IMG/VR virus record: IMGVR_UViG_3300037466_002980
Span: 298,811-362,810 of that record
Source of the DNA: a virus
Lineage: Duplodnaviria > Heunggongvirae > Uroviricota > Caudoviricetes
DNA length: 64,000 nucleotides
Strand: one strand, 5' to 3'
Shown piece after piece: positions 260 through 60,012 of the stretch. A program made the translations under genes and the position numbers. The notes beneath the pieces are model-generated. The model made no database searches. It saw only the letters and a list, made by a program, of their open reading frames with translations, and was not told the origin of the DNA. The stretch's first letter is position 1. Each line of letters opens with the position of its first letter.

Positions 260-442
260 TTACCATCGTACCTTGTTTTTTCTTTTAATTCCTAAGAAAG
301 AAGAAGATGTGAACAATTCATTCATTGTTTTTCTATAATGCTTTAGGGCACGAAGTGCTATTGGCCATGGAAATCTTTTACTGAGAATTTTGATTCTACT
401 AAGAGGTGTTTCGGGAAAGACCAATTTTCTCTTTTTCTTCAT
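260..442 (-). CDS. small basic hypothetical protein
   Basis: 60-aa ORF; 4-nt overlap with the downstream minus-strand gene; lysine/arginine-rich. Confidence 0.3.
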   Translation of the reverse strand: MKKKRKLVFPETPLSRIKILSKRFPWPIALRALKHYRKTMNELFTSSSFLGIKRKNKVRW

Positions 443-648
443 ATTTTTATTTTTTCGGTTTCTTTAATTACTCTTAGATCTGGATAAGTTAATTTTAACA
501 TAAGGAGTTCTTCTTCATCCATCCATTTTGTTTGAATATATCCAAACTCAAAATCAATCCACACAAACTGAACAATCCATGACACTGGATCACTATTTTG
601 TAATTTGAAAAATTCCTCTTTAGGCAATGATATTCTATAAGATTTCAC
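439..648 (-). CDS. small protein of the terminal-motif paralog family (array B1)
   Basis: C-terminal 'DEEELLMLKLTYPDL' motif shared with the neighbouring paralogs. Confidence 0.5.
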   Translation of the reverse strand: MKSYRISLPKEEFFKLQNSDPVSWIVQFVWIDFEFGYIQTKWMDEEELLMLKLTYPDLRVIKETEKIKI

Positions 649-674
649 AAATTTATTTATAAAGAATTTTTCTT

Positions 675-785
675 ATTTTAAATTCCTAGGTCGGATTCCT
701 ATTTTAAATTCCGAATCTGACCTTCGGACCTGTGCAAGATTCCTAATCTCAGATTCCAAATTTAAATTCCAAATCTGGTCTTGAT
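675..785. repeat. imperfect direct repeats, TTTAAATTCC-N-AATCTG x3 plus GATTCC x3, in a 385-nt intergenic region
   Basis: TTTAAATTCC at 677, 704 and 761; AATCTG at 715 and 773; candidate iterons or regulatory sites. Confidence 0.5.
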
Positions 786-1033
786 TTTTATGCAGAATTT
801 TCTTATCTAAATCTCCATTTGCCTCGATTAGCTAGAATTCTATCACACGACTTTAATGCTTTTCTTGATTTCTTAAGCCTTCTCTTATATTTCAGTATGG
901 ATATTTTTTTCTTACCTTTTAGAAATATCGAATTTATTAGGAATCTTTTTTTAATTTTTCTTTTCTTCATTATTAGATATACAATCAATGTAACAATAAA
1001 TTCAAAATTAGGATTACAGAAAGTGTTGTAATA

Positions 1034-1339
1034 TTACCTTATGAATATTTCAACCATCCAGAAGAACCATGAAGAAATGAAGTATAGAATTTGATCTTTT
1101 ATTGTATAGACTCGAGCTTCAAATTTGAAACGTAATTTTAAGAAAAGAATATCTTCTTTGGTTGCCTTAATTATTAAATCATTGTTTTCTGTCTCGTAAG
1201 CTAATATTCCTAGATTTTTACATTCGTCGGTGCCTAAATATTTCACAACTGCCCAATAATCCTTTACTTCATCAAAATAAAGGATATATCTGATTGTTTT
1301 ATCAGGATTATGTTCTGAAGAAAAGAGAGGAAATGTCAT
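1034..1339 (-). CDS. small protein of the terminal-motif paralog family (array B1)
   Basis: 'TKEDILFLKLRFKFE' motif; tandem with its paralogs. Confidence 0.5.
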   Translation of the reverse strand: MTFPLFSSEHNPDKTIRYILYFDEVKDYWAVVKYLGTDECKNLGILAYETENNDLIIKATKEDILFLKLRFKFEARVYTIKDQILYFISSWFFWMVEIFIR

Positions 1340-1616
1340 TTCCCACCCGAGAAAGAATAGATGTAAATGGTTTCAGAAGATAAAAGAAATGCTCTCTGGA
1401 ACTTATTTTCTTGACTGAAATAATCTTGTGTTTTAATGAAAGTAATATAACATCTTCCTCTCTCATCTTTTTGGTTCGTATCGGAACATAAGCGACCTGA
1501 TAATTTGCAGAAAGTTCAACTAGATCTGTAGAATGATATTTTCCAATTTCCTCAAGCGATAGAGCAATTTCGCCATGATCTCGAATATCTGTTATAATTT
1601 CGTACCTGGATTTCAT
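1308..1616 (-). CDS. small protein of the terminal-motif paralog family (array B1)
   Basis: 'REEDVILLSLKHKII' motif; the N-terminus is probably shorter than the ORF track shows. Confidence 0.45.
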   Translation of the reverse strand: MKSRYEIITDIRDHGEIALSLEEIGKYHSTDLVELSANYQVAYVPIRTKKMREEDVILLSLKHKIISVKKISSREHFFYLLKPFTSILSRVGNDISSLFFRT

Positions 1617-1798
1617 TCTATAATTCCGATATGAACATCGAATTTTAATTTGATATAGATCATATCATCGTTATCCATACGCTTCGTACTCAGCGTATAA
1701 ACTTTCGGCCATTCGTCCTCTAATAGTTTCCTGACATACAAATGAAAGTAAACTGTATTATAATCTTCTGGACTGGTTACTATATAATATCTTTTCAT
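1613..1798 (-). CDS. small protein of the terminal-motif paralog family (array B1)
   Basis: C-terminal 'DNDDMIYIKLKFDVH'. Confidence 0.5.
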   Translation of the reverse strand: MKRYYIVTSPEDYNTVYFHLYVRKLLEDEWPKVYTLSTKRMDNDDMIYIKLKFDVHIGIIE

Positions 1799-1995
1799 AA
1801 ATCCAATAAAGTCAATCCTGTTTTTAATGCCAGGAAATCAAGTTCCTCCATATTCGGATCAACAACATATCCGATAACAACTCTTCTTCCATTTGGTAAT
1901 GGAAATCTTCCTCCGTATTTTCTTTCCGCAAAAAAGTAGGCAACCTCTTCAGCGAAATCACCAGGAACTTCATAAAAAATTATCTTCTCTGCCAT
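1795..1995 (-). CDS. small protein of the terminal-motif paralog family (array B1)
   Basis: C-terminal 'NMEELDFLALKTGL'; 4-nt overlap with its neighbour. Confidence 0.45.
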   Translation of the reverse strand: MAEKIIFYEVPGDFAEEVAYFFAERKYGGRFPLPNGRRVVIGYVVDPNMEELDFLALKTGLTLLDL

Positions 1996-2218
1996 AATAT
2001 GAATATCTGTTGGAATTTCGATTATATCTAAATGTGGGACAGGCCAATGATAGTTGAAGAAGATCCTCTTCAGTCAATCCGCTAATAGATACATAATATT
2101 TTATATTAGTTTCCGTTGCTTGTATAATGGTATAAGTTGACAACCGGAGTATATGAGATATGAGTAATTCCTTCTCGTGTTTCAACACCCAACAATCGAA
2201 TACTATACGTCCGCTCAT
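1970..2218 (-). CDS. small protein of the terminal-motif paralog family (array B1)
   Basis: 'TEEDLLQLSLACPTF' motif. Confidence 0.45.
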   Translation of the reverse strand: MSGRIVFDCWVLKHEKELLISHILRLSTYTIIQATETNIKYYVSISGLTEEDLLQLSLACPTFRYNRNSNRYSYYGREDNFL

Positions 2219-2457
2219 TTAAATCTATCGCTGATAATTAATTTAATTGTCTTTTGAACTTCTCCAAACTCAGCAGGAGAATGATGATAATAAAGTTTGA
2301 ATTTTAACTTCAATAAAACCAGAAGATCTTCATCTACGGTTGCTTCTATCGCCATCATTCCAGGTATGTTGGTATTTCTTTTAAGGTAATCTGTTTCCTT
2401 TATTTCCTCAATAAAAGAATCAATACTACCATATTCAACATAGAATTTATATTTCAT
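2215..2457 (-). CDS. small protein of the terminal-motif paralog family (array B1)
   Basis: 'VDEDLLVLLKLKFKL' motif; 4-nt overlap. Confidence 0.5.
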   Translation of the reverse strand: MKYKFYVEYGSIDSFIEEIKETDYLKRNTNIPGMMAIEATVDEDLLVLLKLKFKLYYHHSPAEFGEVQKTIKLIISDRFK

Positions 2458-2466
2458 AACTCTTTC

Positions 2467-2661
2467 TTAATTATCTATCTTCACAATTCGAAATCTGTAC
2501 TTAATCGAAAGAAATAATAAACAATCCTCATCTGAAGTTTGAAGATATCCCCAGGGACTATTACCAATATTTTCAATAATAGAAAATGAAAATCCATTAT
2601 TATGATCATTCATCATTTCTTCTATTGCATTCTTATCCGGAAATATAACCTTATATATCAT
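2467..2661 (-). CDS. small protein of the terminal-motif paralog family (array B1)
   Basis: 'SDEDCLLFLSIKYRF' motif. Confidence 0.5.
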   Translation of the reverse strand: MIYKVIFPDKNAIEEMMNDHNNGFSFSIIENIGNSPWGYLQTSDEDCLLFLSIKYRFRIVKIDN

Positions 2662-2879
2662 CTTCTGCCTAAAATCTTTTCCTTCTTATTTAGAATTTTA
2701 ATAGTAGGAAATTTCAACATTAAAACTAGAAGATCATCGTCTTCAATGTTAATTATATGAATTCCGGCTTCTTTGGTTACGGTTATTGAAATTAGAACAT
2801 CATAGCAACGCATTAGAGCAACATGGTGTCTGAAATCATGATAACAATTAATTGGAACCTCTATTGTTGCTTCATTCAT
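2658..2879 (-). CDS. small protein of the terminal-motif paralog family (array B1)
   Basis: 'EDDDLLVLMLKFPTI' motif. Confidence 0.5.
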   Translation of the reverse strand: MNEATIEVPINCYHDFRHHVALMRCYDVLISITVTKEAGIHIINIEDDDLLVLMLKFPTIKILNKKEKILGRR

Positions 2880-3111
2880 TTATAAGATCTTTTTTTACAA
2901 TATTAAATGATAAAGATAATAGTGTTAATTCTTCTTCGGAAATTCGCATATGAAATGTTAAGCATGAAAGCGGAGCAAGTTCTTCAATCATGGCTTGTAG
3001 GAGATCACCCGGTTCGTGTTTAACTTCTCGTTTTAATATTGAATCAATCTTAAATCTTATTTCGACTCTTGAACTCCTAGGTTCTCGAATAACAATACGC
3101 CAAATATTCAT
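2872..3111 (-). CDS. small protein of the terminal-motif paralog family (array B1)
   Basis: 'SEEELTLLSLSFNIV' motif. Confidence 0.45.
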   Translation of the reverse strand: MNIWRIVIREPRSSRVEIRFKIDSILKREVKHEPGDLLQAMIEELAPLSCLTFHMRISEEELTLLSLSFNIVKKDLINE

Positions 3112-3317
3112 CTAAATTTACCACCCAATAATATTAAATAATTCAATTCTTCATTATCCAAATATAAATTAAACCAACAGAATGGATAATAGACATTATA
3201 AAATTTTCTACCTTTTTCCTTTTTATTATCCATAAGGCTACCAATAAATTCACAGGCATGAACAGATGCAAGCTCATTTGGGAACACTATTTGATGATTT
3301 TGTACGACAGGGTTCAT
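3108..3317 (-). CDS. small protein of the terminal-motif paralog family (array B1)
   Basis: C-terminal 'DNEELNYLILLGGKF'. Confidence 0.45.
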   Translation of the reverse strand: MNPVVQNHQIVFPNELASVHACEFIGSLMDNKKEKGRKFYNVYYPFCWFNLYLDNEELNYLILLGGKFR

Positions 3318-3380
3318 AGAATAAAAAATGATTACACAGAAAAATCTGTATAAAATTTATTTAAAACTTTCTCATGTGTT

Positions 3381-3674
3381 CTAATTGCTTGGGCCGCGAT
3401 AGTGCAACATATTGTCCGGTAAACTAACTCTTATCATAGTTTCTGTTTCTACCACTTGTCTAAATGAATATTTCAATGTTAGAAGAGTAACAAATTCTTT
3501 ATCTGCCTTAAGTGAAATTATGGTATTATGATAAACATTTCTATACCATGTATAGCAAAGTCCTGTCAATATTCGTTTATTATGATAATTTTGAATTTCT
3601 TGAACGAGGTTGTTGAAAAAATCAGGATGTTCCTGTTCACTTTCGAATTCTATTAGAAAATAAGACATTTCCAT
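3381..3674 (-). CDS. small protein of the terminal-motif paralog family (array B1)
   Basis: 'KADKEFVTLLTLKYSF' motif. Confidence 0.45.
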   Translation of the reverse strand: MEMSYFLIEFESEQEHPDFFNNLVQEIQNYHNKRILTGLCYTWYRNVYHNTIISLKADKEFVTLLTLKYSFRQVVETETMIRVSLPDNMLHYRGPSN

Positions 3675-10367: not shown

Positions 10368-10628
10368 TTAATTCACCCTATTCGCTGGATCCACATAGAT
10401 CTCACGAATATGTTCTGCAACAATTTCGTTATCTGTATGAATTTCAAAATTAGAAGTTCCACTAGCAGTGGATGTGAAAGATGCTCTATATAATTCATCT
10501 TTCCATTTTGTTAGATCATCAAGCAGTTTTCCTGTTGGAATTATATCTTTTACGGAAAAATAATCAATCTTAAACCCGAAACGTGTCTTTCGCGCTTTGA
10601 TTTCTCTAAATCCAGAGATATAATTCAT
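10368..10628 (-). CDS. hypothetical protein
   Basis: 86-aa ORF. Confidence 0.4.
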   Translation of the reverse strand: MNYISGFREIKARKTRFGFKIDYFSVKDIIPTGKLLDDLTKWKDELYRASFTSTASGTSNFEIHTDNEIVAEHIREIYVDPANRVN

Positions 10629-10837
10629 TAATAACTCCGTGTCAAAATAACACCTTCTTTTTTAGCATGTAGAAGGAATTCTATCCATTCCCATCCGTGT
10701 CTTTTACAAAATTCTAACCTTGCAAATGAAGAGCGAAATTCTCCCGCAAAATTAGTCTTATTGTATAGATCAAGAAGAACATAAAAATCAAGCCTTTTGA
10801 GCTTATTAAATGTATCCTCTTCTGTTTTGGTCTCCAT
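10628..10837 (-). CDS. divergent member of the 'MTEEDTF' family
   Basis: 'METKTEEDTFNKLKRLDF...KRHGWEWIEF'. Confidence 0.5.
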   Translation of the reverse strand: METKTEEDTFNKLKRLDFYVLLDLYNKTNFAGEFRSSFARLEFCKRHGWEWIEFLLHAKKEGVILTRSY

Positions 10838-11010
10838 TACCGATATTCCCTGCGCATTTTCTTCTTTGCGCGAATCATATCTTTTTCTTTGAATTTCTTT
10901 CGATCCTTTGGATGCACATACTCATCCTGATCGTAATCATCTTCATAATCGAAGTTATCTTCTTGATAATCTTCTTGATAATCTTCTTGATTAGGATTAT
11001 TCTGCTTCAT
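10837..11010 (-). CDS. acidic low-complexity mini-protein with QEDY repeats
   Basis: 57-aa ORF below the track cutoff; contains a 12-nt DNA tandem repeat (ATCTTCTTGATA)x3; TAATG junction with the next gene. Confidence 0.35.
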   Translation of the reverse strand: MKQNNPNQEDYQEDYQEDNFDYEDDYDQDEYVHPKDRKKFKEKDMIRAKKKMRREYR

Positions 11011-11076
11011 AGCCCACGATGCTGTTTTGCTGCCCTTATTTTATGTAATATCAAATAAAGTGTCAACAGGAGGTTG

Positions 11077-11484
11077 TTATTTCACTTCTTCAAATTCAAT
11101 ATTGTTCACATCGGAAAGTTTTGCCCAGAAACGCACTGGTCGTTTCGGAATTTTTTGTGTATAGGTAAAATCTTCTCTATCTCGGCCAGAAGCGAATTTG
11201 GTAGCAGTTTTCTGTATAACTCTTGGAGCAGTAGTCATACCCTTCCAAAGGAAGGTAACTGAATCAAACTCATCTTGACCTTTACGAATGTAAATACGGT
11301 CGATTTTTAATTCGGCCTGTGCTGGAATTACAACCTTGATTGCTGTATCACGGTCGTCCCATGGATCGCGTTTATCACCAACAATTTCCATTAATGTAGA
11401 ATTTCTGTCTTCAGCATATAGATTAAATTCCCAATCTTGGGTAAGACGAATAATATCGCCGATAGAAGGAATATAGAGTTTCAT
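11077..11484 (-). CDS. hypothetical protein
   Basis: 135-aa ORF. Confidence 0.45.
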   Translation of the reverse strand: MKLYIPSIGDIIRLTQDWEFNLYAEDRNSTLMEIVGDKRDPWDDRDTAIKVVIPAQAELKIDRIYIRKGQDEFDSVTFLWKGMTTAPRVIQKTATKFASGRDREDFTYTQKIPKRPVRFWAKLSDVNNIEFEEVK

Positions 11485-11852
11485 GATTTCAGACTTTCAG
11501 TTTCCAAATTAAATTCTGCCCATGCTTCGAAAAATTCCTCAGCAGTCCAATTTAATTCTGGAAGAACATCTTTAAGAGGTTTGCGTGGTAAACCAATATC
11601 GAGGATTTCAGAAAATGATTTCCGTTTTAATTTTCTTATTACATCATCTTCGGTTGTATATTTAAATTTTTTCGAAACCTTTTCAAAATTTTGATCGGTT
11701 GTATAATACAGAATAGAACCTATATCACCCTGGATTGAGGATTCATAAATACCGGCCTGCATTGTACCGTTGTTAAGAACGTGAATTACAATTGCCCTAG
11801 CAGATCCTTTAAAAAGGGCAATTCTATCACCGATTTTATATTTTGATTCCAT
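11481..11852 (-). CDS. hypothetical protein with an 'MTEEDTF'-family-like module in its C-terminal half
   Basis: internal 'TTEDDVIRKLKRKSFSEILD...NWTAEEF'; ATGA overlap with its neighbour. Confidence 0.45.
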   Translation of the reverse strand: MESKYKIGDRIALFKGSARAIVIHVLNNGTMQAGIYESSIQGDIGSILYYTTDQNFEKVSKKFKYTTEDDVIRKLKRKSFSEILDIGLPRKPLKDVLPELNWTAEEFFEAWAEFNLETESLKS

Positions 11853-12069
11853 TTTGGTTCTTCATCCTCTGGAAATCTTGTTCCCTTTGTGTATTAATAG
11901 TAATCACCCATTCATTCCAAGTCCAGCCATGTTGTTTGAAAAATTCTTCACGGTCTGTATTATAACTATCCTGAATGAATGACTTGTCAGCTATCCAACC
12001 ACTAAAAAGACGTGTAATATCATCCAATGGAATTTGTTTTAATTTCTTAAATGTATCTTCTTCAGTCAT
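11836..12069 (-). CDS. MTEEDTF-family small protein
   Basis: 'MTEEDTFKKLKQIP...HGWTWNEW'. Confidence 0.55.
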   Translation of the reverse strand: MTEEDTFKKLKQIPLDDITRLFSGWIADKSFIQDSYNTDREEFFKQHGWTWNEWVITINTQREQDFQRMKNQNGIKI

Positions 12070-12326
12070 TTAAAGAATTCTTTCATAAATTCATCAAAGT
12101 CCCATCCGTGTGGATCTAGAAATTCACGACATATTTCTTTTTGTTTTCCACTGTTCCACCATCTATTACATTCTCTTCGAATCCAGAATTCTTGAAAAGG
12201 CTCAACAATATCTTCAAACGGAGTTCTTTTCAAACGTTCAAATGTCTTCTCTGAATTGTCGTTCACGAGCTGTTCGGTAATATTCTGACCAGGTCCATCC
12301 ATGTTTAGCAAGTAATGAATTAACAT
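12066..12326 (-). CDS. MTEEDTF-family small protein; the true start is probably downstream at GTG 12266
   Basis: 'SEKTFERLKRTPFED...HGWDFDEF'. Confidence 0.5.
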   Translation of the reverse strand: MLIHYLLNMDGPGQNITEQLVNDNSEKTFERLKRTPFEDIVEPFQEFWIRRECNRWWNSGKQKEICREFLDPHGWDFDEFMKEFFK

Positions 12327-12492
12327 TATCCGAAGTTAATGGTGTATTTCTAAGTATTTCTTGAAATTCATCAAATGGTGTTTGTCTTAATTTTCTTAAT
12401 AATTCTTCTTCATTAGACACTTTTATTCTCTTCTCTCCATTGTCTAAAATATTCATTCTTTTCTTTTTCATATTCGACAGAATTCCATCCAT
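12238..12492 (-). CDS. MTEEDTF-family small protein; the probable start is GTG at 12420, tiled as GTGTCTAA on the previous gene's stop
   Basis: 'SNEEELLRKLRQTPFDEF...HGWTWSEY'. Confidence 0.5.
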   Translation of the reverse strand: MDGILSNMKKKRMNILDNGEKRIKVSNEEELLRKLRQTPFDEFQEILRNTPLTSDNVNSLLAKHGWTWSEYYRTARERQFREDI

Positions 12493-12631
12493 GCACCCTT
12501 AGAAGATTCAGATTCGAATCGAAACGTTCTTGATTAGATCCATGCCTCTTCATATTATTTTGATTAATAATTGCAATTATGTCCTCAATAGGACTTCTTC
12601 TCAATCGATTGAATGTATCATCTTCAGTCAT
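12413..12631 (-). CDS. MTEEDTF-family small protein
   Basis: internal start 'MTEDDTFNRLRRSPIEDI...HGWNSVEY'; ATGA junction. Confidence 0.55.
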   Translation of the reverse strand: MTEDDTFNRLRRSPIEDIIAIINQNNMKRHGSNQERFDSNLNLLRVHGWNSVEYEKEKNEYFRQWREENKSV

Positions 12632-12825
12632 TTTATAAGATAAGTTCTTTTCCAATGCATAACCCTAGCAGTTTCATATTCGTCGGGATTCCATCCATTT
12701 GCCCTAAGAAGTCTTATATTTCTTTCAAAAGAAACTCCCGCTTCTATGTTTGATTTCTGAATTATCTCTATCATTTCTCCAATAGGAGTTCTTCTCAATC
12801 GATTGAATGTATCATCTTCAGTCAT
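12628..12825 (-). CDS. MTEEDTF-family small protein
   Basis: 'MTEDDTFNRLRRTPIGEM...NGWNPDEY'. Confidence 0.55.
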   Translation of the reverse strand: MTEDDTFNRLRRTPIGEMIEIIQKSNIEAGVSFERNIRLLRANGWNPDEYETARVMHWKRTYLIK

Positions 12826-13012
12826 TTTGTTGCCTATATTCTACGTATTCGTAGTAGGTCCACTTATATTGTTGAAAGAAGGTATCCACCTTTTTGTCCC
12901 AGTCTTTGCTATTAAGAGAAAAACCAACACTTAGTAACCAAGCATGATACTTGGTTTTCATTTCAATGAATGGAATTCTATTCAAAACTTTGAAGGTATC
13001 GTCCTCAGTCAT
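12818..13012 (-). CDS. MTEEDTF-family small protein
   Basis: 'MTEDDTFKVLNRIPFIEM...YKWTYYEY'; 8-nt overlap. Confidence 0.55.
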   Translation of the reverse strand: MTEDDTFKVLNRIPFIEMKTKYHAWLLSVGFSLNSKDWDKKVDTFFQQYKWTYYEYVEYRQQND

Positions 13013-13015
13013 ATC

Positions 13016-13201
13016 TTATAATCGATAAAGATAATCGTGCCAGGTCCATCCATGTTCTTCAAAAAACGAATTTCTTTTTTTGTAAAAGTCGGACGTCGGA
13101 GTAACAAAGTCAATATTCTCTGAAAACCATTTAAGGTAAAGAATTTTCATTTCTTGAAAAGAAACTTTTTTCAATCTTAGAAATGTATCTTCTTCAGTCA
13201 T
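13016..13201 (-). CDS. MTEEDTF-family small protein
   Basis: 'MTEEDTFLRLKKVSFQEM...HGWTWHDY'. Confidence 0.55.
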   Translation of the reverse strand: MTEEDTFLRLKKVSFQEMKILYLKWFSENIDFVTPTSDFYKKRNSFFEEHGWTWHDYLYRL

Positions 13202-15334: not shown

Positions 15335-15556
15335 TCAATACCTTAGATTAAACATAACAATATCTTCTTCGGTCGGAAAGACAACCATCCAACCTCTATC
15401 CTCGACATACTTTTCATAGATATTATATTTCTGAAGTTCTTGTGATAAATCATCGTTGGTTATAATATGAAAATTACCAATCTTACTTTCAACCTTATCC
15501 CACATTCTAGCATAGGCACGAATAATTCTTTCATCGTGGATACTAATTTCAATCAT
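15335..15556 (-). CDS. WW-array small protein of the terminal-motif family
   Basis: 'MIEISIHDERII...RGWMVVFPTEEDIVMFNLRY'. Confidence 0.55.
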   Translation of the reverse strand: MIEISIHDERIIRAYARMWDKVESKIGNFHIITNDDLSQELQKYNIYEKYVEDRGWMVVFPTEEDIVMFNLRY

Positions 15557-15557
15557 A

Positions 15558-15761
15558 TTAATTCTTTAGAATAAACATGATCAGATCTTCTTCATTTTCA
15601 AAGATAAGATACCAACCATATGCTCCTCGTTTGAAATTACAATTATACTTTTTCAATTCGTCGGTAATAAAATCAATTACATCCGATGTTTGAATACCTT
15701 TGTGCCAAATCCTATGATATTGTTTTGCTACCCTCAAATCATCAATGCTAATCTCTACCAT
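15558..15761 (-). CDS. WW-array small protein of the terminal-motif family
   Basis: '...YNCNF..GWYLIFENEEDLIMFILKN'; 2-nt spacing from its neighbour. Confidence 0.55.
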   Translation of the reverse strand: MVEISIDDLRVAKQYHRIWHKGIQTSDVIDFITDELKKYNCNFKRGAYGWYLIFENEEDLIMFILKN

Positions 15762-15762
15762 A

Positions 15763-15972
15763 TCAATTTAATAATATAAAAGCAAGTGCATCTTCTTCAT
15801 TATCGAAGCAGAGCCACCATTCTCCATCTTCATATTCAAACTTGCAATTATATTTTCTTAATTCTTTTTTTAGTTGTTCGATTCTAAATTCAAGACGTAC
15901 ATCAACAACAAGATCGAATATCTTATCATAGAAATTTACTACCTTAGGATCATGAATTCTAAATTTAACCAT
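15763..15972 (-). CDS. WW-array small protein of the terminal-motif family
   Basis: '...YNCKF..WWLCFDNEEDALAFILLN'. Confidence 0.55.
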   Translation of the reverse strand: MVKFRIHDPKVVNFYDKIFDLVVDVRLEFRIEQLKKELRKYNCKFEYEDGEWWLCFDNEEDALAFILLN

Positions 15973-15973
15973 T

Positions 15974-16183: not shown

Positions 16184-16184
16184 A

Positions 16185-40022: not shown

Positions 40023-40025
40023 ATT

Positions 40026-40316: not shown

Positions 40317-40319
40317 ATT

Positions 40320-43653: not shown

Positions 43654-43655
43654 AA

Positions 43656-44471: not shown

Positions 44472-44721
44472 AACTTAACCTGAATAATACTAGATCTTCT
44501 TCGTGTTCAAAAATTAGATAAAATCTTGGAAACTCAATAATTTTACAGTGAAATGTGGTCAATATTTCGTCTCTTATTTTTCTAAATTTTCCTACGTAAT
44601 TGATATCAGAAGGATCTAACATAAATTCTTTCTGAAGACGAACAATAAAATTTTCCCAGAAATTCTCTAACATTCCGTTTTTGAATAAATCCAATTCGAT
44701 TGATGTTTTATTTTCTAGCAT
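44461..44721 (-). CDS. family E small protein
   Basis: 'FEHEEDLVLFRLSYGW'. Confidence 0.55.
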   Translation of the reverse strand: MLENKTSIELDLFKNGMLENFWENFIVRLQKEFMLDPSDINYVGKFRKIRDEILTTFHCKIIEFPRFYLIFEHEEDLVLFRLSYGW

Positions 44722-44986
44722 ATTCTACATTTACGTACGGAGAATCATATCTTAACATAAAAACAAGTTGCAGTTCACTATTCTTGAAATTTACCGTAGC
44801 ATGTTGAGTATAACCAAAGTCATAATATGAAGCTTCATATTTCTCAAATTCTTTAACAATATATTCGGTCCTAGCATGACCATTGATTTTCTTAAAATTG
44901 TTGTGTTCTTTGAAAATATCATTAATAAAATTTTTCCACCAATTAGGACAATCGTTAAAGGTAGAAGGAATGGTGAAGCATGTCAT
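44708..44986 (-). CDS. family E small protein
   Basis: 'CPNWWKNFINDI...FKNSELQLVFMLRYDSPY'. Confidence 0.55.
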   Translation of the reverse strand: MTCFTIPSTFNDCPNWWKNFINDIFKEHNNFKKINGHARTEYIVKEFEKYEASYYDFGYTQHATVNFKNSELQLVFMLRYDSPYVNVEYARK

Positions 44987-45234
44987 GAAAATTTTAATTT
45001 GAATACCAATAGGTCTTCTTCAGTTTCAAATTCAACAGAATATCCAGAATTCGAATCATGGATAAATTTAGCATTATATTTTTCTAATTCAAGATCAATT
45101 CCATTCCTGAATATTTTGTTTTCTTCATTTCCGTATGTGTTTACCAAATTATATAATTCTAGAATATATTTTTCAAAATTTTGCCACTCGACAGGACAGT
45201 TCCTTAAATATGTAGCAAGTTTAAAAATAACCAT
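44983..45234 (-). CDS. family E small protein
   Basis: 'CPVEWQNFEKYI...FETEEDLLVFKLKFS'. Confidence 0.55.
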   Translation of the reverse strand: MVIFKLATYLRNCPVEWQNFEKYILELYNLVNTYGNEENKIFRNGIDLELEKYNAKFIHDSNSGYSVEFETEEDLLVFKLKFS

Positions 45235-45484
45235 TATGAAAATTTTAATTTGAATGCTAATAAGTCTTCTTTAGTTTCAAATTCAACAGAATATCCAAAA
45301 TTCGAATCATGGATAAATTTCGCTCTATATTTTTTTAGTTCACCATTAAACATTCTTCCCCAGGTTGTTATCTGTTCTTTATCTGCATTGTGTATATCTA
45401 TAGACAATTTTTCTGAAATATAGCTTTCAAAATTTTGCCATTCTATTGGGCATCTATGGTTGGGGCAAGATTAAATATAACCAT
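45235..45484 (-). pseudogene. frameshifted paralog of the gene at 44983..45234
   Basis: starts 'MVIFNLAPTIDAQ*' and continues in another frame as 'HRCPIEWQNFESY...FETKEDLLAFKLKFS'; there is a 4-nt deletion relative to its neighbour, and this is why no ORF of 60 aa or more is listed here. Confidence 0.5.
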
Positions 45485-45711
45485 TATGAAAATCTCAATT
45501 TAAAAATCATAGCTTCTTCTTCTGAATCGAACATTAGACATGGACTCTTATCTTGAACATAATGCATAGATGCACTAAATTTTCGAAGCTCCTTGTCCCT
45601 ATAATTATAAAATTCTGGTGTTGCAAGAGATTTGTTGTTCAGAAGAAAATTTACAAATCTACTCCAATATGGATATGCGTGTCCCTTGTTATAGATTTCT
45701 AGAATATACAT
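45484..45711 (-). CDS. family E small protein
   Basis: 'FDSEEEAMIFKLRFS'. Confidence 0.55.
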   Translation of the reverse strand: MYILEIYNKGHAYPYWSRFVNFLLNNKSLATPEFYNYRDKELRKFSASMHYVQDKSPCLMFDSEEEAMIFKLRFS

Positions 45712-45941
45712 TATGAATATTTTATTTTGAATAAGATTGCATCGTTTTCTGTATCGAATTCTATTACAGGATTTTCATTATAACAAAAAAGCATGCGACC
45801 ATTAAATTCGGAAACAAGCGTATCTCGTATGATAAAAAGACTTACATTCTTCTTTTCTGCTTCCCAAAGAACATAATCTGAAAATCGAATCCAGTATGCT
45901 AAAAAATTACTCTCTGTATCACAAATTTCTAGAATATACAT
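45711..45941 (-). CDS. family E small protein
   Basis: 'FDTENDAILFKIKYS'. Confidence 0.55.
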   Translation of the reverse strand: MYILEICDTESNFLAYWIRFSDYVLWEAEKKNVSLFIIRDTLVSEFNGRMLFCYNENPVIEFDTENDAILFKIKYS

Positions 45942-45944
45942 TTT

Positions 45945-46241
45945 CTAAGTGCCAGACACACAATCATCAATTGTTTTATATTTCAATTTAAAAATTAGAA
46001 AATCATGTTCGTTAATAAACCAAATTTTGGTATTATCTAATTGAAAGGGTGTCTGCCATATCCAATCATTTCCAAATTGGGCATCAAATTCAATTCTATC
46101 TTTCTCATTTATTCTGTGATCAAGATATAGATGTGGAAAATTATAATCTAGATATGCTACTGCATCTCTAGGCCTATCTCGGAGATCACGGTCAATTCTG
46201 AAATTCTCAAGTTTTGTCATGATACACAGATTATCAATCAT
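45945..46241 (-). CDS. small protein of the terminal-motif family
   Basis: 'INEHDFLIFKLKYKTIDD'. Confidence 0.5.
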   Translation of the reverse strand: MIDNLCIMTKLENFRIDRDLRDRPRDAVAYLDYNFPHLYLDHRINEKDRIEFDAQFGNDWIWQTPFQLDNTKIWFINEHDFLIFKLKYKTIDDCVSGT

Positions 46242-53484: not shown

Positions 53485-53772
53485 TTAATTACCTTTAATT
53501 GTTCTTACCATTTCTGCTTCAGAAATGAATTGTTTCGCATTTTGTATGAACTCTTCTAGTTCTTCCAAATCAAGACCGTGGAAGGCAATTCTTTGTGTTC
53601 TAACTGGCTTATTACGACTCCACTGCGGAAAATTATAAAGAGATACAATTAATCCGCCTGTTTCCGTAATTTCAATTCGAAGCTTTTCATTGCCAGTAAT
53701 CGAGACCGCCTCTGCGGCCAATGTGTCGGATTTATAATCATTTTCAGCAACGGATAATTCTTTAAGCTGCAT
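53485..53772 (-). CDS. hypothetical protein, paralog of the gene at 53224..53484
   Basis: see its paralog. Confidence 0.45.
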   Translation of the reverse strand: MQLKELSVAENDYKSDTLAAEAVSITGNEKLRIEITETGGLIVSLYNFPQWSRNKPVRTQRIAFHGLDLEELEEFIQNAKQFISEAEMVRTIKGN

Positions 53773-53995
53773 AAGGACCTATTCTATACAATTCTTCAGC
53801 AAAATCTTCCCACGTCCAACCATATTCATTAAATAATGCATCTACAGTATCGGAATAATTTTCGGAATGTGCATCGTGTGGTGAAATGCTCTTTATGTAA
53901 ATTTTTGACATTTCCTTAAAAGAAACCTTCCTGCGAAGTATTCTAAATGGTCTGTCCAGATCTTTTTCTTCGATTATATTCTTCATAGAATTCAT
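53762..53995 (-). CDS. MTEEDTF-family small protein
   Basis: 'EEKDLDRPFRILRRKVSFKEM...YGWTWEDF'. Confidence 0.5.
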   Translation of the reverse strand: MNSMKNIIEEKDLDRPFRILRRKVSFKEMSKIYIKSISPHDAHSENYSDTVDALFNEYGWTWEDFAEELYRIGPYAA

Positions 53996-54158
53996 TCCAG
54001 GTCCATCCCCTGGGATTTAAAAAGTTTTCCATTCCGGGACGATCATAATAAACATCCATTACCAATTTTTGTTGGTCATTACTTGGAAGCATTTTAAATT
54101 CTCTATCTACAATCTCCCACGGATCACGTCGAAGTTTTTTGAAGATCAAATCATCCAT
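53943..54158 (-). CDS. MTEEDTF-family small protein
   Basis: 'MDDLIFKKLRRDPWE...RGWTWNEF'; 8-nt overlap. Confidence 0.5.
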   Translation of the reverse strand: MDDLIFKKLRRDPWEIVDREFKMLPSNDQQKLVMDVYYDRPGMENFLNPRGWTWNEFYEEYNRRKRSGQTI

Positions 54159-54360
54159 ATTTGCCACGCCTGGTGGATTCGATTGTTATTTCTTCTAATG
54201 TCCATCCGTACTTAGGATAAAATTTTCTTAACCAATTCGTGTATTCGACTCCTTCGAGAGTCGAATTAGGAAATAATCTTATATTTCTTCTCCAGATATC
54301 TATCATTTCGTCGTAGGTAGGCTTTCTTAGCCGTTCAAATGTTTTATTAATATCATCCAT
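54151..54360 (-). CDS. MTEEDTF-family small protein
   Basis: 'MDDINKTFERLRKPTYDEM...YGWTLEEI'. Confidence 0.55.
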   Translation of the reverse strand: MDDINKTFERLRKPTYDEMIDIWRRNIRLFPNSTLEGVEYTNWLRKFYPKYGWTLEEITIESTRRGKYG

Positions 54361-55988: not shown

Positions 55989-56423
55989 TTAAGAAATAGA
56001 TTCTCTTGAATAGGTACCGTCACCGTTTGGTGTTAATTTAAGCCTCTTTGAAGGATATTTATAATCTCCTACTTGGGTAAAACTTTCGTTAAGATATCCC
56101 TCTCTAGTAATATCATAGACTTTCCAGTTTTCCATAGGGGAAACACCTTGTACGTAATCAATCCTTTTTCCATATGTTTGGAAGCACCAATCTTCAATCC
56201 ATGAACGAGAATTAATCCAGTAAAAAGCCTCATTATAAAATTCAACATGAACTGAACCGTAATATCCTCTACCTTCGGTTAGATCGGGACTGAAAACAAT
56301 ATTCCAATAGGTTGTAAATTTCTTTCTCTTTTCTATCTGTTCTTCGTAAGCAATACAATCTTTTTCGGTAGTAAATTCCGTGTTGTCGTCTGCTATATAT
56401 ATTGTGCTTGTTTTAGTTTTCAT
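55989..56423 (-). CDS. hypothetical protein
   Basis: 144-aa ORF. Confidence 0.45.
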   Translation of the reverse strand: MKTKTSTIYIADDNTEFTTEKDCIAYEEQIEKRKKFTTYWNIVFSPDLTEGRGYYGSVHVEFYNEAFYWINSRSWIEDWCFQTYGKRIDYVQGVSPMENWKVYDITREGYLNESFTQVGDYKYPSKRLKLTPNGDGTYSRESIS

Positions 56424-56617
56424 AATTCTTTCTTGCTTTCATTAATCCATTCCATATAAGTCCATCCATACGATTCGAATAACTTATCATTTTCCGGCCA
56501 ATAATTTTCTTTTAGGAAGGAATCTCTCCCTGCTGAAATCCACCAATCTTTATAATATTCTGACATTTGATTAAATGATACTCTCTTTAACCTTTTAAAT
56601 GTATCTTCTTCAGTCAT
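56420..56617 (-). CDS. MTEEDTF-family small protein
   Basis: 'MTEEDTFKRLKRVSFNQM...YGWTYMEW'. Confidence 0.55.
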   Translation of the reverse strand: MTEEDTFKRLKRVSFNQMSEYYKDWWISAGRDSFLKENYWPENDKLFESYGWTYMEWINESKKEL

Positions 56618-56815
56618 TTAATATTCTCGTCGGTAATATTCAATGCTATATTCTTCAACAGTCCATCCATGCCTTTTGAAGAATTTAAATGTATCAAAAT
56701 TAGGATGATAACGAGATTCTGAATTCGACTTAGGACGATAGGTACCTCCCCATAGTCGTTTCATCTCTTCATAATCGACTCGCCGAAGTCGGGCAATCAG
56801 ATCATCTTCGTCCAT
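56618..56815 (-). CDS. MTEEDTF-family small protein
   Basis: internal start 'MDEDDLIARLRRVDYEEM...HGWTVEEY'. Confidence 0.5.
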   Translation of the reverse strand: MDEDDLIARLRRVDYEEMKRLWGGTYRPKSNSESRYHPNFDTFKFFKRHGWTVEEYSIEYYRREY

Positions 56816-56997
56816 AAAGATTTTTGATATTCTATGTATTCGTTTATAAAATCCTGAACTTCCCAATTATATTCATCAAAGAATTCTTTTGGAACATCGC
56901 CTAAATCCTGAAAGAAGAATTTACTCTCCAATCTATCTTTTACAATATTGAATGGTGCTCTTTTTAATTTCCTAAAGGTATCATCCTCATTTGTCAT
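56797..56997 (-). CDS. MTEEDTF-family small protein
   Basis: 'MTNEDDTFRKLKRAPF...YNWEVQDF'. Confidence 0.55.
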   Translation of the reverse strand: MTNEDDTFRKLKRAPFNIVKDRLESKFFFQDLGDVPKEFFDEYNWEVQDFINEYIEYQKSLWTKMI

Positions 56998-57221
56998 GAC
57001 TGCAATTTGAATTTTGTAAAATATTCAGCCATTGGATGTGTTAATAGGGATCTAGCTCCAAAGGCAATATATCCGAATCTGGTATCTTGATCGATATAAT
57101 CCACACCCTTAATTACAAACGTTCCATCTATACATTCTAATTGTGTACCATCCGGCAATTGATTATATTCTTCCGGTGTGATAAGATATAGTGGATTTTC
57201 TTCATTGCTCCATTTTATCAA
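56994..57221 (-). CDS. hypothetical protein
   Basis: 75-aa ORF. Confidence 0.4.
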   Translation of the reverse strand: MIKWSNEENPLYLITPEEYNQLPDGTQLECIDGTFVIKGVDYIDQDTRFGYIAFGARSLLTHPMAEYFTKFKLQS

Positions 57222-57400
57222 TTACATCTCCATAATCCAATCTGGTGTTCTTTGTATTCTTTTATTGTCCATCCACGATGTTCGAAAAATTCTTCGACAC
57301 GTTCTGGATGATTTGGCGTTTCAAGATAATCTATTAGTGCCAATACCATTTCATCATATGGTATTTGTCTTAATTTTCTAACTGTATCTTCTTCAGTCAC
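57218..57400 (-). CDS. MTEEDTF-family small protein
   Basis: 'MTEEDTVRKLRQIPYDEM...RGWTIKEY'. Confidence 0.55.
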   Translation of the reverse strand: MTEEDTVRKLRQIPYDEMVLALIDYLETPNHPERVEEFFEHRGWTIKEYKEHQIGLWRCN

Positions 57401-57618
57401 TATTCACCTGTTGATAAATCGATGTTATTCTTTCTACATTCCTTGGCAAGGATATTCCAATTCCAACTTGTATTTTCCCAGAGTTGTTTCCAGATTTCAT
57501 TTACTTCATTAGAAGATAGATATGGATTACGATATACACCGGCGGTATCAAAATACCTATCTACTATTTCAGATAATGGTATTCTCTTCAATGCAAGAAA
57601 TGTATCATCTTCGGTCAT
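57400..57618 (-). CDS. MTEEDTF-family small protein
   Basis: 'MTEDDTFLALKRIPLSEI...TSWNWNIL'. Confidence 0.5.
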   Translation of the reverse strand: MTEDDTFLALKRIPLSEIVDRYFDTAGVYRNPYLSSNEVNEIWKQLWENTSWNWNILAKECRKNNIDLSTGE

Positions 57619-57803
57619 TGTTGTGAATTTTCATCCATTCTTCTATTATGTTCGTCAGCTAATTCCATTAATGTCCATCCACGTCGATATAAGAATTCAG
57701 ATTCTATCTCCGTGTTAACAAATGGAAGCCTCATCCATAATTTGAGCATTTCCTCATATGGAATTCTTTTTAATTTTTGAATTAATCTTTCTTCAGAATC
57801 CAT
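57615..57803 (-). CDS. MTEEDTF-family small protein
   Basis: internal start 'MDSEERLIQKLKRIPYEEM...RGWTLMEL'. Confidence 0.5.
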   Translation of the reverse strand: MDSEERLIQKLKRIPYEEMLKLWMRLPFVNTEIESEFLYRRGWTLMELADEHNRRMDENSQQ

Positions 57804-58107
57804 GTGTATTATAATCACTCATATCTAAACAATGATCTTTTGGAATATCTCCTCTAATGAATTCCATTCGAACATTAAATTCTTTCATTTCTTTTAGATA
57901 GTGTTCAATAGTCTTACCATGCCAAATTTTCGGAATAGCATATTTTACTTTACACCATTCGACATTGTTTTCGGGTCTTCCCGAATACTGGCATCTAAAT
58001 GAATAACTATCACTCAATCCACCAGACATTGTTTGAAGATAAAGTGGACGACACCAATCTTCTCCGTTTATAATGTCGGAAGGTTCAAGGAGTTGTATTG
58101 CTATCAT
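57793..58107 (-). CDS. hypothetical protein
   Basis: 104-aa ORF. Confidence 0.4.
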   Translation of the reverse strand: MIAIQLLEPSDIINGEDWCRPLYLQTMSGGLSDSYSFRCQYSGRPENNVEWCKVKYAIPKIWHGKTIEHYLKEMKEFNVRMEFIRGDIPKDHCLDMSDYNTHGF

Positions 58108-58330
58108 TAGGTGTATTCACTTGAACTGTAGATGTTGGCGTAATCAAAATACCCAAGATTAACCTGTTTTTTTTTGACCAGAGTTGTTTTTGAAATTCTT
58201 CAGGTTCCCAGAAATATTGTTTCATCAATTCATTTAATGAAAAATGTGATCTTTTGTTTTCCCAAATTTCATACATTTCCTCAAAGGATGGCTTCTTTAA
58301 TTTCTTAAACGTGTCGTCTTCAGCATTCAT
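58085..58330 (-). CDS. MTEEDTF-family small protein
   Basis: 'MNAEDDTFKKLKKPSFEEM...YFWEPEEF'. Confidence 0.55.
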   Translation of the reverse strand: MNAEDDTFKKLKKPSFEEMYEIWENKRSHFSLNELMKQYFWEPEEFQKQLWSKKNRLILGILITPTSTVQVNTPNDSNTTP

Positions 58331-58569
58331 TGATTACTCCTAATCAGTCCCTCAATGTGAACCGGCGTAATAGCTCGAGAACAATTTTCCTTTTCCGATC
58401 GATTAGGATATAAATCCACCAATCTTTCTCCACAACATTCACAACGATGTGATTGCATTATTCCGTGTTCCTCTTTAGGAAAAACACCCATACCTTTGAT
58501 TTTGATATGGGTTTTTCCTACCGTATATTCATATTCATTACCATCAACGATAATTTTCCTATACGACAT
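58327..58569 (-). CDS. hypothetical protein with a Cys cluster
   Basis: 80-aa ORF; 'HRCECCGERL'. Confidence 0.4.
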   Translation of the reverse strand: MSYRKIIVDGNEYEYTVGKTHIKIKGMGVFPKEEHGIMQSHRCECCGERLVDLYPNRSEKENCSRAITPVHIEGLIRSNQ

Positions 58570-58570
58570 A

Positions 58571-59785
58571 TTAGCCTTTCACACATAAAACTTGTTTTAG
58601 GGTATGCACAACTTCTACAAGATCTTCTTGTGCTTTCATAACCTCATCGATATCCTTGTATGCAGCTGGAATTTCATCAATCACAGCTTCATCCTTTCTG
58701 CATTCGATTCCAGCAGTCTGTTCTTCAAGTGCAGCAATATCGAAAAGTTTCTTAGCTTGATTACGGCTCATTCTTCTTCCTGCTCCGTGAGAACAAGAAC
58801 AATATGAATCGGCACAACCTTTACCTTTTACAATAAAGGATTTAGCGCCCATTGAACCTGGAATAATTCCCAGTTGTCCAAAATTGGCAGAAACTGCACC
58901 TTTTCTTGTAACCCACATTCCTTCTCCATTGTGTTCTTCCCACGATGTGAAATTGTGGTGACAGTTAACTACCTCGCCAAGAATTTTTAACGTAGGAAAT
59001 TTTCTCTTCAATCCAGCCACAACAAGATTCATCATTGTATCACGATTGAAACGAGCATAATTCTGTGCCCAAGTCATTGCTTCGATATAATCATCGAATT
59101 CTTTGGTTCCTTCGTCGAGCCATGCTAAATCCTGATCAGGGAGACCCCAATCTCTTTTCGCAGCTTGTTCCTTAGCTAATTGGATAGCGACCTCGCCTAT
59201 TTGATTACCAATGCCGCGAGATCCGGAATGGAGCATAATCCAAACTCTATTTTCTGAGTCTAGGCATAACTCAATGAAATGGTTACCGCCACCAAGTGTA
59301 CCAATTTGTCTTCCGATTCTCTTTTCATCGGCACGACCTAGCTTTTCTTTCATTCCAAGTGTTTCCCATTGATCCATTGTCTTTCTTAGATTCTTCCTAA
59401 GAATATCAGCATATGGACCCGACACAGAAGGAATTCCTGCCTTATGTTCATTAAAACCAACGGGAACATCTCTTTCGATTTGATGTCTTATTGATAATAA
59501 AGATTCTGGTAAATCATCTGCAGTAAGGTTGGTCATGGCAGCACACATTCCGCAACCAATGTCAACACCAACGGCAGCGGGAATGATAGCAGAACGTGTC
59601 GGAATAACGGAACCCACAGTGGCACCCTTACCAGCATGAACATCTGGCATGATAGCGATATGTCCTGCAAGGATAGGAACCTGCGAAATATTCATGATTT
59701 GCTGAAGAGCTGCCTCTTCAACATCCATGCTTCCTACCCACATTTTTACATTTTCAATTTCCATTTTTAACCTTTTAGTTTCCAA
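58571..59785 (-). CDS. rtcB: RNA-splicing ligase RtcB (joins 3'-phosphate or 2',3'-cyclic phosphate ends to 5'-OH ends)
   Basis: hallmark metal- and GTP-binding motifs 'MPDVHAGKG', 'GGGNHFIE', 'CHHNF' and 'SCSHGAGR'; 404 aa. Confidence 0.85.
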   Translation of the reverse strand: METKRLKMEIENVKMWVGSMDVEEAALQQIMNISQVPILAGHIAIMPDVHAGKGATVGSVIPTRSAIIPAAVGVDIGCGMCAAMTNLTADDLPESLLSIRHQIERDVPVGFNEHKAGIPSVSGPYADILRKNLRKTMDQWETLGMKEKLGRADEKRIGRQIGTLGGGNHFIELCLDSENRVWIMLHSGSRGIGNQIGEVAIQLAKEQAAKRDWGLPDQDLAWLDEGTKEFDDYIEAMTWAQNYARFNRDTMMNLVVAGLKRKFPTLKILGEVVNCHHNFTSWEEHNGEGMWVTRKGAVSANFGQLGIIPGSMGAKSFIVKGKGCADSYCSCSHGAGRRMSRNQAKKLFDIAALEEQTAGIECRKDEAVIDEIPAAYKDIDEVMKAQEDLVEVVHTLKQVLCVKG

Positions 59786-60012
59786 ATCAATACATCATTT
59801 TTATCAATTAAACACAAATCCTTTGCATTATGTCTCGATGTTGTTGTCGATAGAGATTTTCTTACCAAGATTAACTTACAAAGAAACTTCTTGGCATATT
59901 GCTTAATTTCTAGTATCTCATAGATGTTATTATAATACACGACAAAATCACCCACAACTAATGGACGAGCCAACATATCAAGCGGAGCTTTCTTTCCGTC
60001 AGTTAGATCCAT
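59767..60012 (-). CDS. small protein of the terminal-motif family
   Basis: C-terminal 'DKNDVLIWKLKG'; overlaps the rtcB start by 19 nt. Confidence 0.45.
   Translation of the reverse strand: MDLTDGKKAPLDMLARPLVVGDFVVYYNNIYEILEIKQYAKKFLCKLILVRKSLSTTTSRHNAKDLCLIDKNDVLIWKLKG

Follow-up and report, generated by a model that had tools for sequence, protein, structure and literature searches.

Tandem arrays of amplified mini-proteins in an uncultivated jumbo phage, and the capped helix that several of their families have in common

A stretch of 64,000 nucleotides from an uncultivated jumbo phage of the class Caudoviricetes (IMG/VR record IMGVR_UViG_3300037466_002980, positions 298,811 to 362,810; this whole stretch is called the window below) contains numerous arrays of small paralogous genes, and it raises the question of what the short conserved segment near one end of so many of their products represents. 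The first-pass annotation had read this segment as one terminal motif, E-[ED]-D-x-h-x-[LF]-K-L-K-[YFR] (h, hydrophobic; x, any residue), present in more than 100 small open reading frames (ORFs) of at least seven distinct families, and had proposed that it is a free linear tag, such as a degron or an injection signal, or alternatively a nucleic acid element at gene junctions. The analysis reported here points to a different explanation, namely that the window probably holds amplified arrays of mini-proteins in which the supposed tag is a capped α-helix belonging to each mini-domain fold rather than a free linear tag. The massive expansion of uncatalogued mini-domain families in this phage is real, and one linear motif set on seven unrelated architectures is not what we found.

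Array families and the helix signature

Nearly all genes of the window lie on the minus strand, and the gene set consisted of 193 minus-strand ORFs called heuristically. Copies were counted by six-frame hidden Markov model (HMM) searches of the window, which gave about 93 small array genes, motif-only cases included, rather than more than 100; they belong to six sequence families and occupy 21.3 kb, that is, 33% of the window. The families comprise 35 MTEEDTF copies (at least 31 had been reported), 21 WW/E-type copies plus two motif-only cases, 12 of B1, 6 of B2, 12 of C and 5 of D. All HMM matches were on the minus strand and none was in an alternative frame. The families as frame-shifted copies of one sequence, the scenario that had been named as refuting the proposal, were rejected because the HMMs match the annotated frame and strand only. 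BLAST clustering of the 193 genes yielded groups of 35 MTEEDTF, 11 C and 5 D members, together with a group of 16 that unites the WW array, the E array, a GNAT fusion protein and the gene at 17308-17547, so that WW and E do not differ in architecture. The divergence of B1 and B2 was too great for them to be clustered by BLAST.

Read literally, the proposed motif matched only three proteins, and three of the five strings quoted for it had been slightly mis-transcribed (the corrected forms are FENEQDAVAFLLLN and MNDEIEILLELKF, and MTEEDTFNRLKR does not occur verbatim in any copy). A looser signature was recovered with 11-residue scoring matrices from which one family at a time was left out, the B1 motif sites of the training set being chosen by eye: the annotated site was found in 12/12 B1 proteins, in 21 of the 23 WW/E-type proteins and in 11/11 members of family C, and the WW/E-type and B1 matrices found each other's sites reciprocally. 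Ten of the 11 N-terminal helices of family C scored above the 95th percentile of shuffled sequences. The Mann-Whitney p values against shuffles (5e-4 to 5e-8) are inflated because paralogs are not independent, and the consistency of position is therefore the stronger argument. A 14-residue matrix derived from the WW/E cluster gave more than 10 bits in seven further proteins, where shuffles gave 0.23 per proteome, and its top match fell on the motif in most B1 members. The likeness of the two remaining families was only marginal on account of low scores and a register shift: family D scored just above the 95th percentile of shuffles, at a C-terminal site in four of five close paralogs, and the top match in the MTEEDTF family fell on the N-terminal helix in 24 of the 35 proteins with a median of 1.2 bits, a shift of one residue in register and a basic residue at the final motif position, which is aromatic in the other families.

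The signature reached 8 bits or more only three times in 12,963 residues of the other window proteins, and all three cases look like extra instances; in a control of 15,658 residues of phage T4 (50 kb of early genes of similar GC content) it did so 0 times. These two controls reject the view that any generic helix of an AT-rich phage protein would show the composite signature. The signature, composed of an N-cap, acidic residues, a hydrophobic run and L-K-aromatic, is specifically common to the WW/E, B1/B2 and C families. In B1 the signature, [ED][ED][ED]-hh-x-h-x-L-K-[YF], forms a helix inside the protein, often with Pro after it, and one further strand-like segment comes next; in family C it is the N-terminal helix M-N-E-I-E-x-h-L-x-L-K-Y of proteins with a conserved C terminus, h-h-V-R-x-D-A-L.

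Profile-profile comparison separated these relationships further. WW and E matched each other with 96-99.8% probability over 34-93 columns (99-99.8% with a deep profile), whereas only 13-21 motif columns aligned in the pairs C-B1, C-B2, B1-B2 and E-B1, with scores of 19.8-24.4 against at most 16.9 for reversed decoys. Weaker pairs were WW-B2 (42% over 44 columns), B2-B1 (39%), C-B1/B2 (22-32%) and MTEEDTF-C (6.7%), and no profile-profile match to the other families was obtained for family D. Beyond the helix, the comparison detected no similarity between the bodies of C, B and E, for which a remote common origin is nevertheless conceivable. Of the claim of one motif across seven distinct families, what stands is thus a looser helix signature in WW/E, B1/B2 and C; WW, E and most of the single genes form one family, MTEEDTF has an unrelated fold and D is marginal.

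The segment as part of a fold

Predicted structures cover two of the six families, WW/E-type and MTEEDTF. The WW/E fold was modelled with AlphaFold2 on one representative, 44983-45234, from a 107-sequence alignment, and gave a mean predicted local distance difference test score (pLDDT) of 95.7 and a predicted template modelling score of 0.84. The predicted elements are E2-6, H15-27, H36-51, E55-60, E64-69 and H72-82 (E, strand; H, helix), that is, a β-α-α-β-β-α topology in which the motif corresponds to strand E64-69 and the C-terminal helix H72-82, with a helix pLDDT of about 96-98. T71 and the E-E-D after it form a classical N-cap and an acidic first turn of this helix. Positions 75-80 and 82 of the helix are 63-100% hydrophobic (6-7 of 8 positions), and F69, F78 and L80 are invariant or nearly so, which suggests, as far as the model goes, that the C-terminal helix is largely buried in the core. 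Residues W17, N19, F20, L50, Y53, N54, A55 and 67-83 are conserved as well, and this conservation across the whole length therefore identifies a whole domain, not a tag. Accordingly, the earlier picture of a conserved tag on a diversified body holds in that the terminal segment is the best conserved part, and fails in that conservation extends to the remainder of the WW/E domain.

The WW/E-type family is widespread in metagenomes: an exhaustive scan of 1.84 billion representative proteins with its HMM retrieved 524 clusters at E <= 1e-3, nearly all of which are 70-90 aa long, match from end to end and finish in ...[ILV]-x-F-E-T-E-E-D-A-x-x-F-x-L-[RK]-W-S. The motif ends 0-14 residues before the stop codon in the window and at the stop in most of 133 external homologues. 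When the deep WW/E profile (A4) was compared with the window, 17 proteins matched over most of the profile and 4 over its last 20-30 positions only; among the latter kind of match are those of the E-array genes 43943-44212 and 45945-46241. B1 scored 10.6% over 21 columns and B2, C, D and MTEEDTF no more than 2.3%, and these last four are therefore not assigned to the WW/E family.

Two larger proteins also carry the unit. The GNAT acetyltransferase 16643-17329 (Acetyltransf_3, RimJ/RimL-like) has a near-complete WW/E-type domain at its C terminus, and this fusion hints that the mini-domain may be able to act as a targeting or binding module. The 252-aa protein 20092-20850 (phrog_1843) is 53% identical to ORF306 of Ralstonia phage phiRSL1 over residues 1-233 and ends in a 19-aa strand-plus-helix tail (TFKNAEDRLAYEMKYGHLF) that phiRSL1 ORF306 does not have. 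The next gene of that phage, ORF307, ends in ...SEEDELSIYRFQVSWA, a vague likeness with different spacing.

The MTEEDTF model (56420-56617, AlphaFold2, 42 sequences; pLDDT 91.8) is all-helical, with helices H3-11, H15-29, H39-49 and H54-64, and the family is best described as an unrelated four-helix domain on the strength of this prediction. Its motif is helix 1 (H3-11; pLDDT 78 for residues 1-10), which is amphipathic, with two conserved hydrophobic positions and a basic end, and is chemically unlike the WW/E helix. In the family profile (A3) L10 never varies, and E3 and W52 hardly do; external homologues keep the start M-T-E-[ED]-D-T-F-x-x-L-K-R-I-P-L-x-E-M and a G-W-T turn, which is G-W-[TN] in the window family. 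Fold and PDB profile searches gave no informative structural or sequence neighbour of this family. The check by AlphaFold2 thus cut both ways, since the WW/E and MTEEDTF folds are indeed distinct, and the motif is a folded element in both models, mostly hydrophobic in the WW/E helix, contrary to a free linear tag, degron or injection signal.

Part of the WW/E segment has a wider distribution. A search of viral contigs for DNA encoding the exact heptapeptide FETEEDA gave at least 120 loci; among those listed, 7 carry the WW/E-type family and the others are strand-to-helix junctions of unrelated proteins, including AP2 domains of HNH homing endonucleases (sub-threshold matches, Pfam E down to 8e-6) and many proteins of 60-80 aa ending in a helix. 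A weak match of the WW/E profile also fell on the RNP1/helix-2 junction of the nucleolin RRM. Hence the acidic first half represents a supersecondary junction that recurs, and a generic-helix reading is accepted for this F-E-T-E-E-D-A half only; the part specific to the phage families is the following hydrophobic run with L-[KR]-aromatic. The consensus of the AP2 junction is W-L-G-T-F-x-T-x-E-E-A-A-x-A-Y and that of RRM RNP1 is F-V-E-F-x-x-x-E-D-A-x-x-A. Common to both and to the WW/E segment are a hydrophobic strand ending in F, a Thr/Ser/Asp N-cap, an acidic helical turn, Ala and an amphipathic helix packed on a sheet. In contrast, the β-α-α-β-β-α topology of WW/E is neither three strands plus a helix nor β-α-β-β-α-β, and its second half, F-x-L-[RK]-W at the extreme C terminus, is family-specific. 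No Pfam AP2 or RRM match was found for window proteins (E <= 1) or for 107 WW/E family members (E <= 0.01).

Level of selection, strain variation and competing explanations

A codon-level check showed that selection acts on the protein, not on the DNA. The share of GAA among motif Glu codons was 0.83 in MTEEDTF and 0.92 in WW/E against 0.85 genome-wide, and that of GAT among Asp codons was 0.78 and 0.90 against 0.80, with no significant deviation in either family (binomial p 0.26-0.70); Lys AAA was enriched in the WW/E motif only (p = 0.005). That the conserved element is a purine-rich nucleic acid signal, GAAGAAGAT, at gene junctions is barely conceivable, and this alternative is refuted by the codon data. 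The coding strand does contain 18 occurrences of the element, against 4 on the opposite strand, and ATGA overlaps between genes bias codon 2 towards codons starting with A (Thr, Asn, Ile, Lys); however, codon choice for E, D and K matches genome usage, the Leu, Arg and Thr codons of the motif vary freely, third codon positions hold 0.66 bits and the first two 1.2 bits, and the peptide is kept in distant contigs of different GC content. GAAGAAGAT is therefore simply how E-E-D is preferentially encoded in a genome rich in AT, and the motif lies within 40 nt of a gene boundary because the helix is terminal.

A strain contig, L130 (IMGVR_UViG_3300037471_000790), is 98.7% identical to window positions 25510-38068. 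Collinearity stops at 38068, within the family C array, of which L130 has different members. Over this span the ratio of nonsynonymous to synonymous polymorphism (pN/pS) was 0.06 in other genes, 0.26 in MTEEDTF and 0.39 in C (Fisher p = 1e-4, from small counts), and three array genes differed by frameshifts of 1-2 nt (32349, 35792 and 37521) and one by an in-frame deletion of 3 nt. Twenty of the 21 amino acid changes fell outside the motif, the exception being an S-to-N change at the N-cap position. The window copy 35751-35936 lacks the G-W-T end of the MTEEDTF family and is probably the frameshifted pseudogene.

In the explanation that we favour, five or six small-protein families would have been amplified into tandem, translationally coupled arrays. 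The WW/E segment consists of the last β-strand, a Thr N-cap, an E-E-D turn and a hydrophobic C-terminal helix, and a role of this helix as the core of the domain would account for its being conserved best as the other parts drift. B1 and B2 appear to have the same strand-plus-helix unit in the same register and, judged by sequence, are probably distant relatives of WW/E; family C opens with a helix of the same signature, through common descent or convergence, and helix 1 of MTEEDTF resembles it only in the N-cap, the acidic first turn and the L-K pair. The arrays may be sets of fast-evolving, individually dispensable small scaffolds, which the conserved helix would keep folded and which would use their variable surfaces to bind diverse targets of host or phage, for instance in host takeover or counter-defence. 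Several points weigh against this explanation. The core-helix role in B1, B2, C and D is deduced from hydrophobicity; E72, E73 and D74 are conserved at 2.8-3.7 bits, above what capping needs, so that a binding or metal site is conceivable; L80 falls outside the main hydrophobic face and might indicate a second interface; and the motif-only tail of 19 residues on the enzyme-like 252-aa protein looks modular, as do the end-only profile matches.

The same observations can be turned to a different use, in which the helix is a modular docking element for one partner (an AAA+ ATPase with its VWA partner, a chaperone or a host hub) borne by unrelated bodies. We consider this distinctly unlikely. It would account for the specificity of the signature (0 matches in the T4 control and 3 in other window proteins), for its presence on bodies with no other detectable similarity, for the motif-only tail of 20092-20850, for the conservation of the three acidic residues, and for the location of AAA+ ATPase and DUF2201/VWA genes among the arrays. 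Nevertheless, the helix is 63-100% hydrophobic at 7/8 positions, has a pLDDT of about 97-98 and lies inside a compact fold, the remainder of the WW/E domain is conserved too, the motif sits at different protein ends according to the family and in another register in MTEEDTF, and the link to the ATPase consists of co-location alone. A bolder form of this idea, in which giant phages graft the capped helix (the E-T-E-E-D turn with F-x-L-[KR]-aromatic) as a portable docking module onto mini-bodies of many unrelated kinds and sometimes onto enzymes, as in the GNAT fusion and the 252-aa protein, is a long shot; if it were true, one conserved partner would handle a large, fast-diversifying effector repertoire, and several phages of 360-560 kb would possess an adaptor-plus-variable-cargo system. 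The earlier claim that the same unit occurs on different bodies does retain support from the end-only matches, the 19-residue tail and an array in a 561-kb contig described below.

Descent of all helix-bearing families except MTEEDTF from one ancestral mini-domain, with C and perhaps D as circular permutants that arose through shifted gene boundaries, would explain why the position of the helix, C-terminal or N-terminal, depends on the array, and we regard it as unlikely. A chain of weak profile matches (WW-B2, B2-B1 and C-B1/B2) is consistent with it, the strand-like h-h-V-R-x-D-A-L at the end of the C genes adjoins the N-terminal helix of the next gene through ATGA overlaps, and arrays of other phages mix long and short forms with the same end. 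However, doubled profiles and a permuted C alignment gave neither an extension beyond the helix nor a gain in score, and the deep WW/E profile fails to detect C, D and B2. A circular permutation or boundary shift relating C to B/WW/E was left unsupported, the doubled and permuted profiles stopping at the helix. The last candidate, a capsid-targeting, injection or degradation signal, has its closest analogue in the internal proteins of phage T4, in which the capsid-targeting sequence is a conserved N-terminal decapeptide on otherwise unrelated hypervariable proteins. The likeness lies in a short conserved terminal peptide, the same across many paralogs, on variable bodies of fast-diverging small phage proteins at variable loci. 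Such a role is highly improbable here, because both models show the segment as a structured helix inside a domain, most families have it at the C terminus and others at the opposite end, the WW/E family is conserved from end to end in 524 clusters, the window has no structural or head genes, and no protease site or head-gene context is evident.

Recurrence in other phages, genomic setting and significance

A search of metagenomic contigs, which had been suggested as a check, showed that WW/E-type and MTEEDTF arrays recur in other phages. Two giant-phage contigs, described next, have tandem arrays of their own with the end ...EDAxxFKLKW[LS]. A contig of 364,576 bp (L102, IMGVR_UViG_3300017716_001697) has an array of six full-length WW/E-type genes and a profile-matching form of 56 aa, together with genes of 58 and 63 aa that have only the same end in common. 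In a contig of 561,116 bp (L057, IMGVR_UViG_3300046616_000314), ten tandem genes of about 87 aa share only the end ...F-x-t-x-E-D-A-x-x-F-K-L-K-W-L; these genes also have a distinct conserved element, W-C-x-x-x-L-x-x-x-P, upstream of the motif. Sixteen MTEEDTF copies were found within 20 kb of a 379-kb contig, and the family is also present in IMG/VR contigs of 211, 369 and 385 kb, in the first of which a B1-like gene adjoins the MTEEDTF genes. Family C gave matches only in this phage and in near-identical strains, in a word-indexed search that is insensitive to short divergent proteins.

The positions of the arrays and of the single genes are collected in Table 1. The limits previously assigned to the B1, WW, C, D and E arrays were confirmed, and the MTEEDTF copies fall into five blocks. 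In 11481-11852 (123 aa) the MTEEDTF-type domain is C-terminal and follows about 60 unrelated residues; a motif described as N-terminal can thus be internal.

Table 1. Array blocks and single genes of the window (positions in the window; h, hydrophobic; x, any residue)
Feature	Position	Strand	Content
B1 array	439..3674	-	12 divergent genes, 61-102 aa
MTEEDTF block 1	10628..13201	-	9 copies, including 11481-11852
WW array	15335..16397	-	5 WW/E-type genes (ETEEDA...F-x-L-[RK]-W); 99.1% over 66 columns
WW/E-domain genes	16416..17547	-	three, including the GNAT fusion 16643-17329
Single gene, 72 aa	18327..18545	-	B-type helix EPEYIIFKLRYP
Two genes	19884..20850	-	19884-20108 (WW/E profile match at strand-plus-helix end only) and 20092-20850
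B2 array	22781..24185	-	5 of 6 B2 genes, plus a family-less 110-aa ORF at 23247-23579
Outlying sixth B2 gene	25709..25957	-	
Single gene, 91 aa	29578..29853	-	WW/E profile match at strand-plus-helix end only, FNNEEDATAMKLKG
MTEEDTF block 2	30340..32996	-	11 copies, two unrelated small genes between
MTEEDTF block 3	35751..36919	-	5 copies; family-C-like gene inside at 36323-36559
Family C array	36916..39447	-	11 genes
Family D array	39463..40897	-	5 close paralogs, C-terminal helix A-[DE]-E-L-h-I-h-h-K-L-M
E array	43348..46241	-	11 WW/E-type genes; 99.8% over 93 columns
MTEEDTF block 4	53762..54360	-	3 copies
MTEEDTF block 5	56420..58330	-	7 copies, two unrelated genes interspersed; 56420-56617 is the modelled copy
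Single gene, 81 aa	59767..60012	-	ends KNDVLIWKLKG; 13.5 bits, top motif score outside the families

The window, which belongs to a JGI metagenome contig of 362,810 bp, is an accessory region of the phage genome, since structural, head and other virion genes are absent from it. Megablast with 23 kb of the window found no close DNA match among GenBank phages. Its larger genes encode RtcB, an AAA ATPase, a DUF2201 metallopeptidase/VWA-like protein, a Macro domain protein, a D-Ala-D-Ala carboxypeptidase and an HNH endonuclease. The MoxR-like ATPase (42019-43230, minus strand) is 53% identical to that of the PA5oct group of Pseudomonas jumbo phages and 35-41% identical to those of Atu_ph07, SCTP-2 and Phosso; the longest plus-strand ORF (41977-43305, 442 aa, TTG start) is antisense to its gene and almost certainly spurious. 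Two AAA+ ATPases, one of them MoxR-like, and the DUF2201 metallopeptidase/VWA-like protein lie between the arrays (33092-34288, 42019-43230, 47738-48838 and 49170-50210), the protein of 49170-50210 having no Pfam match and being VWA-like by eye. The RtcB RNA ligase is encoded at 58571-59785 (Pfam E = 2.6e-127) and the Macro domain protein at 50284-50826; RtcB and Macro functions are often tied to the countering of host defences that cleave tRNA or ADP-ribosylate. Two tRNA genes on the minus strand, tRNA-Leu(TAA) at 14360-14451 and tRNA-Arg(TCT) at 21439-21515, read A-ending codons, which suits an AT-rich genome.

The GC content of the array genes is 0.285-0.345, against 0.385 for the large genes. 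Islands of 0.44-0.46 (e.g. 4001-6000, 42001-44000, 48001-50000 and 54001-56000) hold conserved larger genes, and the paralog arrays are at 0.28-0.33 (e.g. 38001-40000 and 44001-46000). Almost throughout, the array genes lack Shine-Dalgarno sequences and are linked by ATGA or TAATG overlaps or by spacers of 1 nt, and A/T-rich DNA lies upstream of array starts (e.g. 15335-16397, 36916-39447 and 56420-58330). The scarcity of Shine-Dalgarno sequences and the start/stop overlaps suggest translational coupling, or else a host in which initiation is independent of Shine-Dalgarno sequences.

In several respects these arrays resemble other expansions of small accessory genes, such as the early small ORFs of T4 and the multigene families of giant viruses: they are tandem, on the same strand and low in GC, with raised pN/pS, copies frameshifted between near-identical strains and no assigned function. 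Unlike those, they reach an unusual scale, about 91 genes (the two motif-only cases aside) from only six families in 33% of 64 kb. The small families, WW/E-type homologues included, had no match in Pfam or PHROGs, one MTEEDTF and one WW/E-type member had no tblastn match among GenBank phage isolates, a BFVD fold search returned uncharacterised proteins only (best E 4e-3), PDB sequence profiles gave E >= 0.15, and a literature search found no description of these families.

For motif scanning, the arrays teach that the terminal "tag" of a set of paralogs can be the folding core of a mini-domain plus a generic strand-to-helix junction, and that checks at the codon and structure levels separate the two cheaply. 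For the phage, the investment is considerable, a third of 64 kb being given over to about 91 tiny genes from six families, of which the two largest recur as arrays in phage contigs of 200-560 kb and yet are absent from Pfam, PHROGs and cultured-phage genomes. The WW/E-type and MTEEDTF proteins are well-defined new domain families with confident predicted folds and are candidate repertoires for host takeover or counter-defence. Our best guess is that the arrays may constitute a diversifying arsenal of small binder proteins serving these functions.

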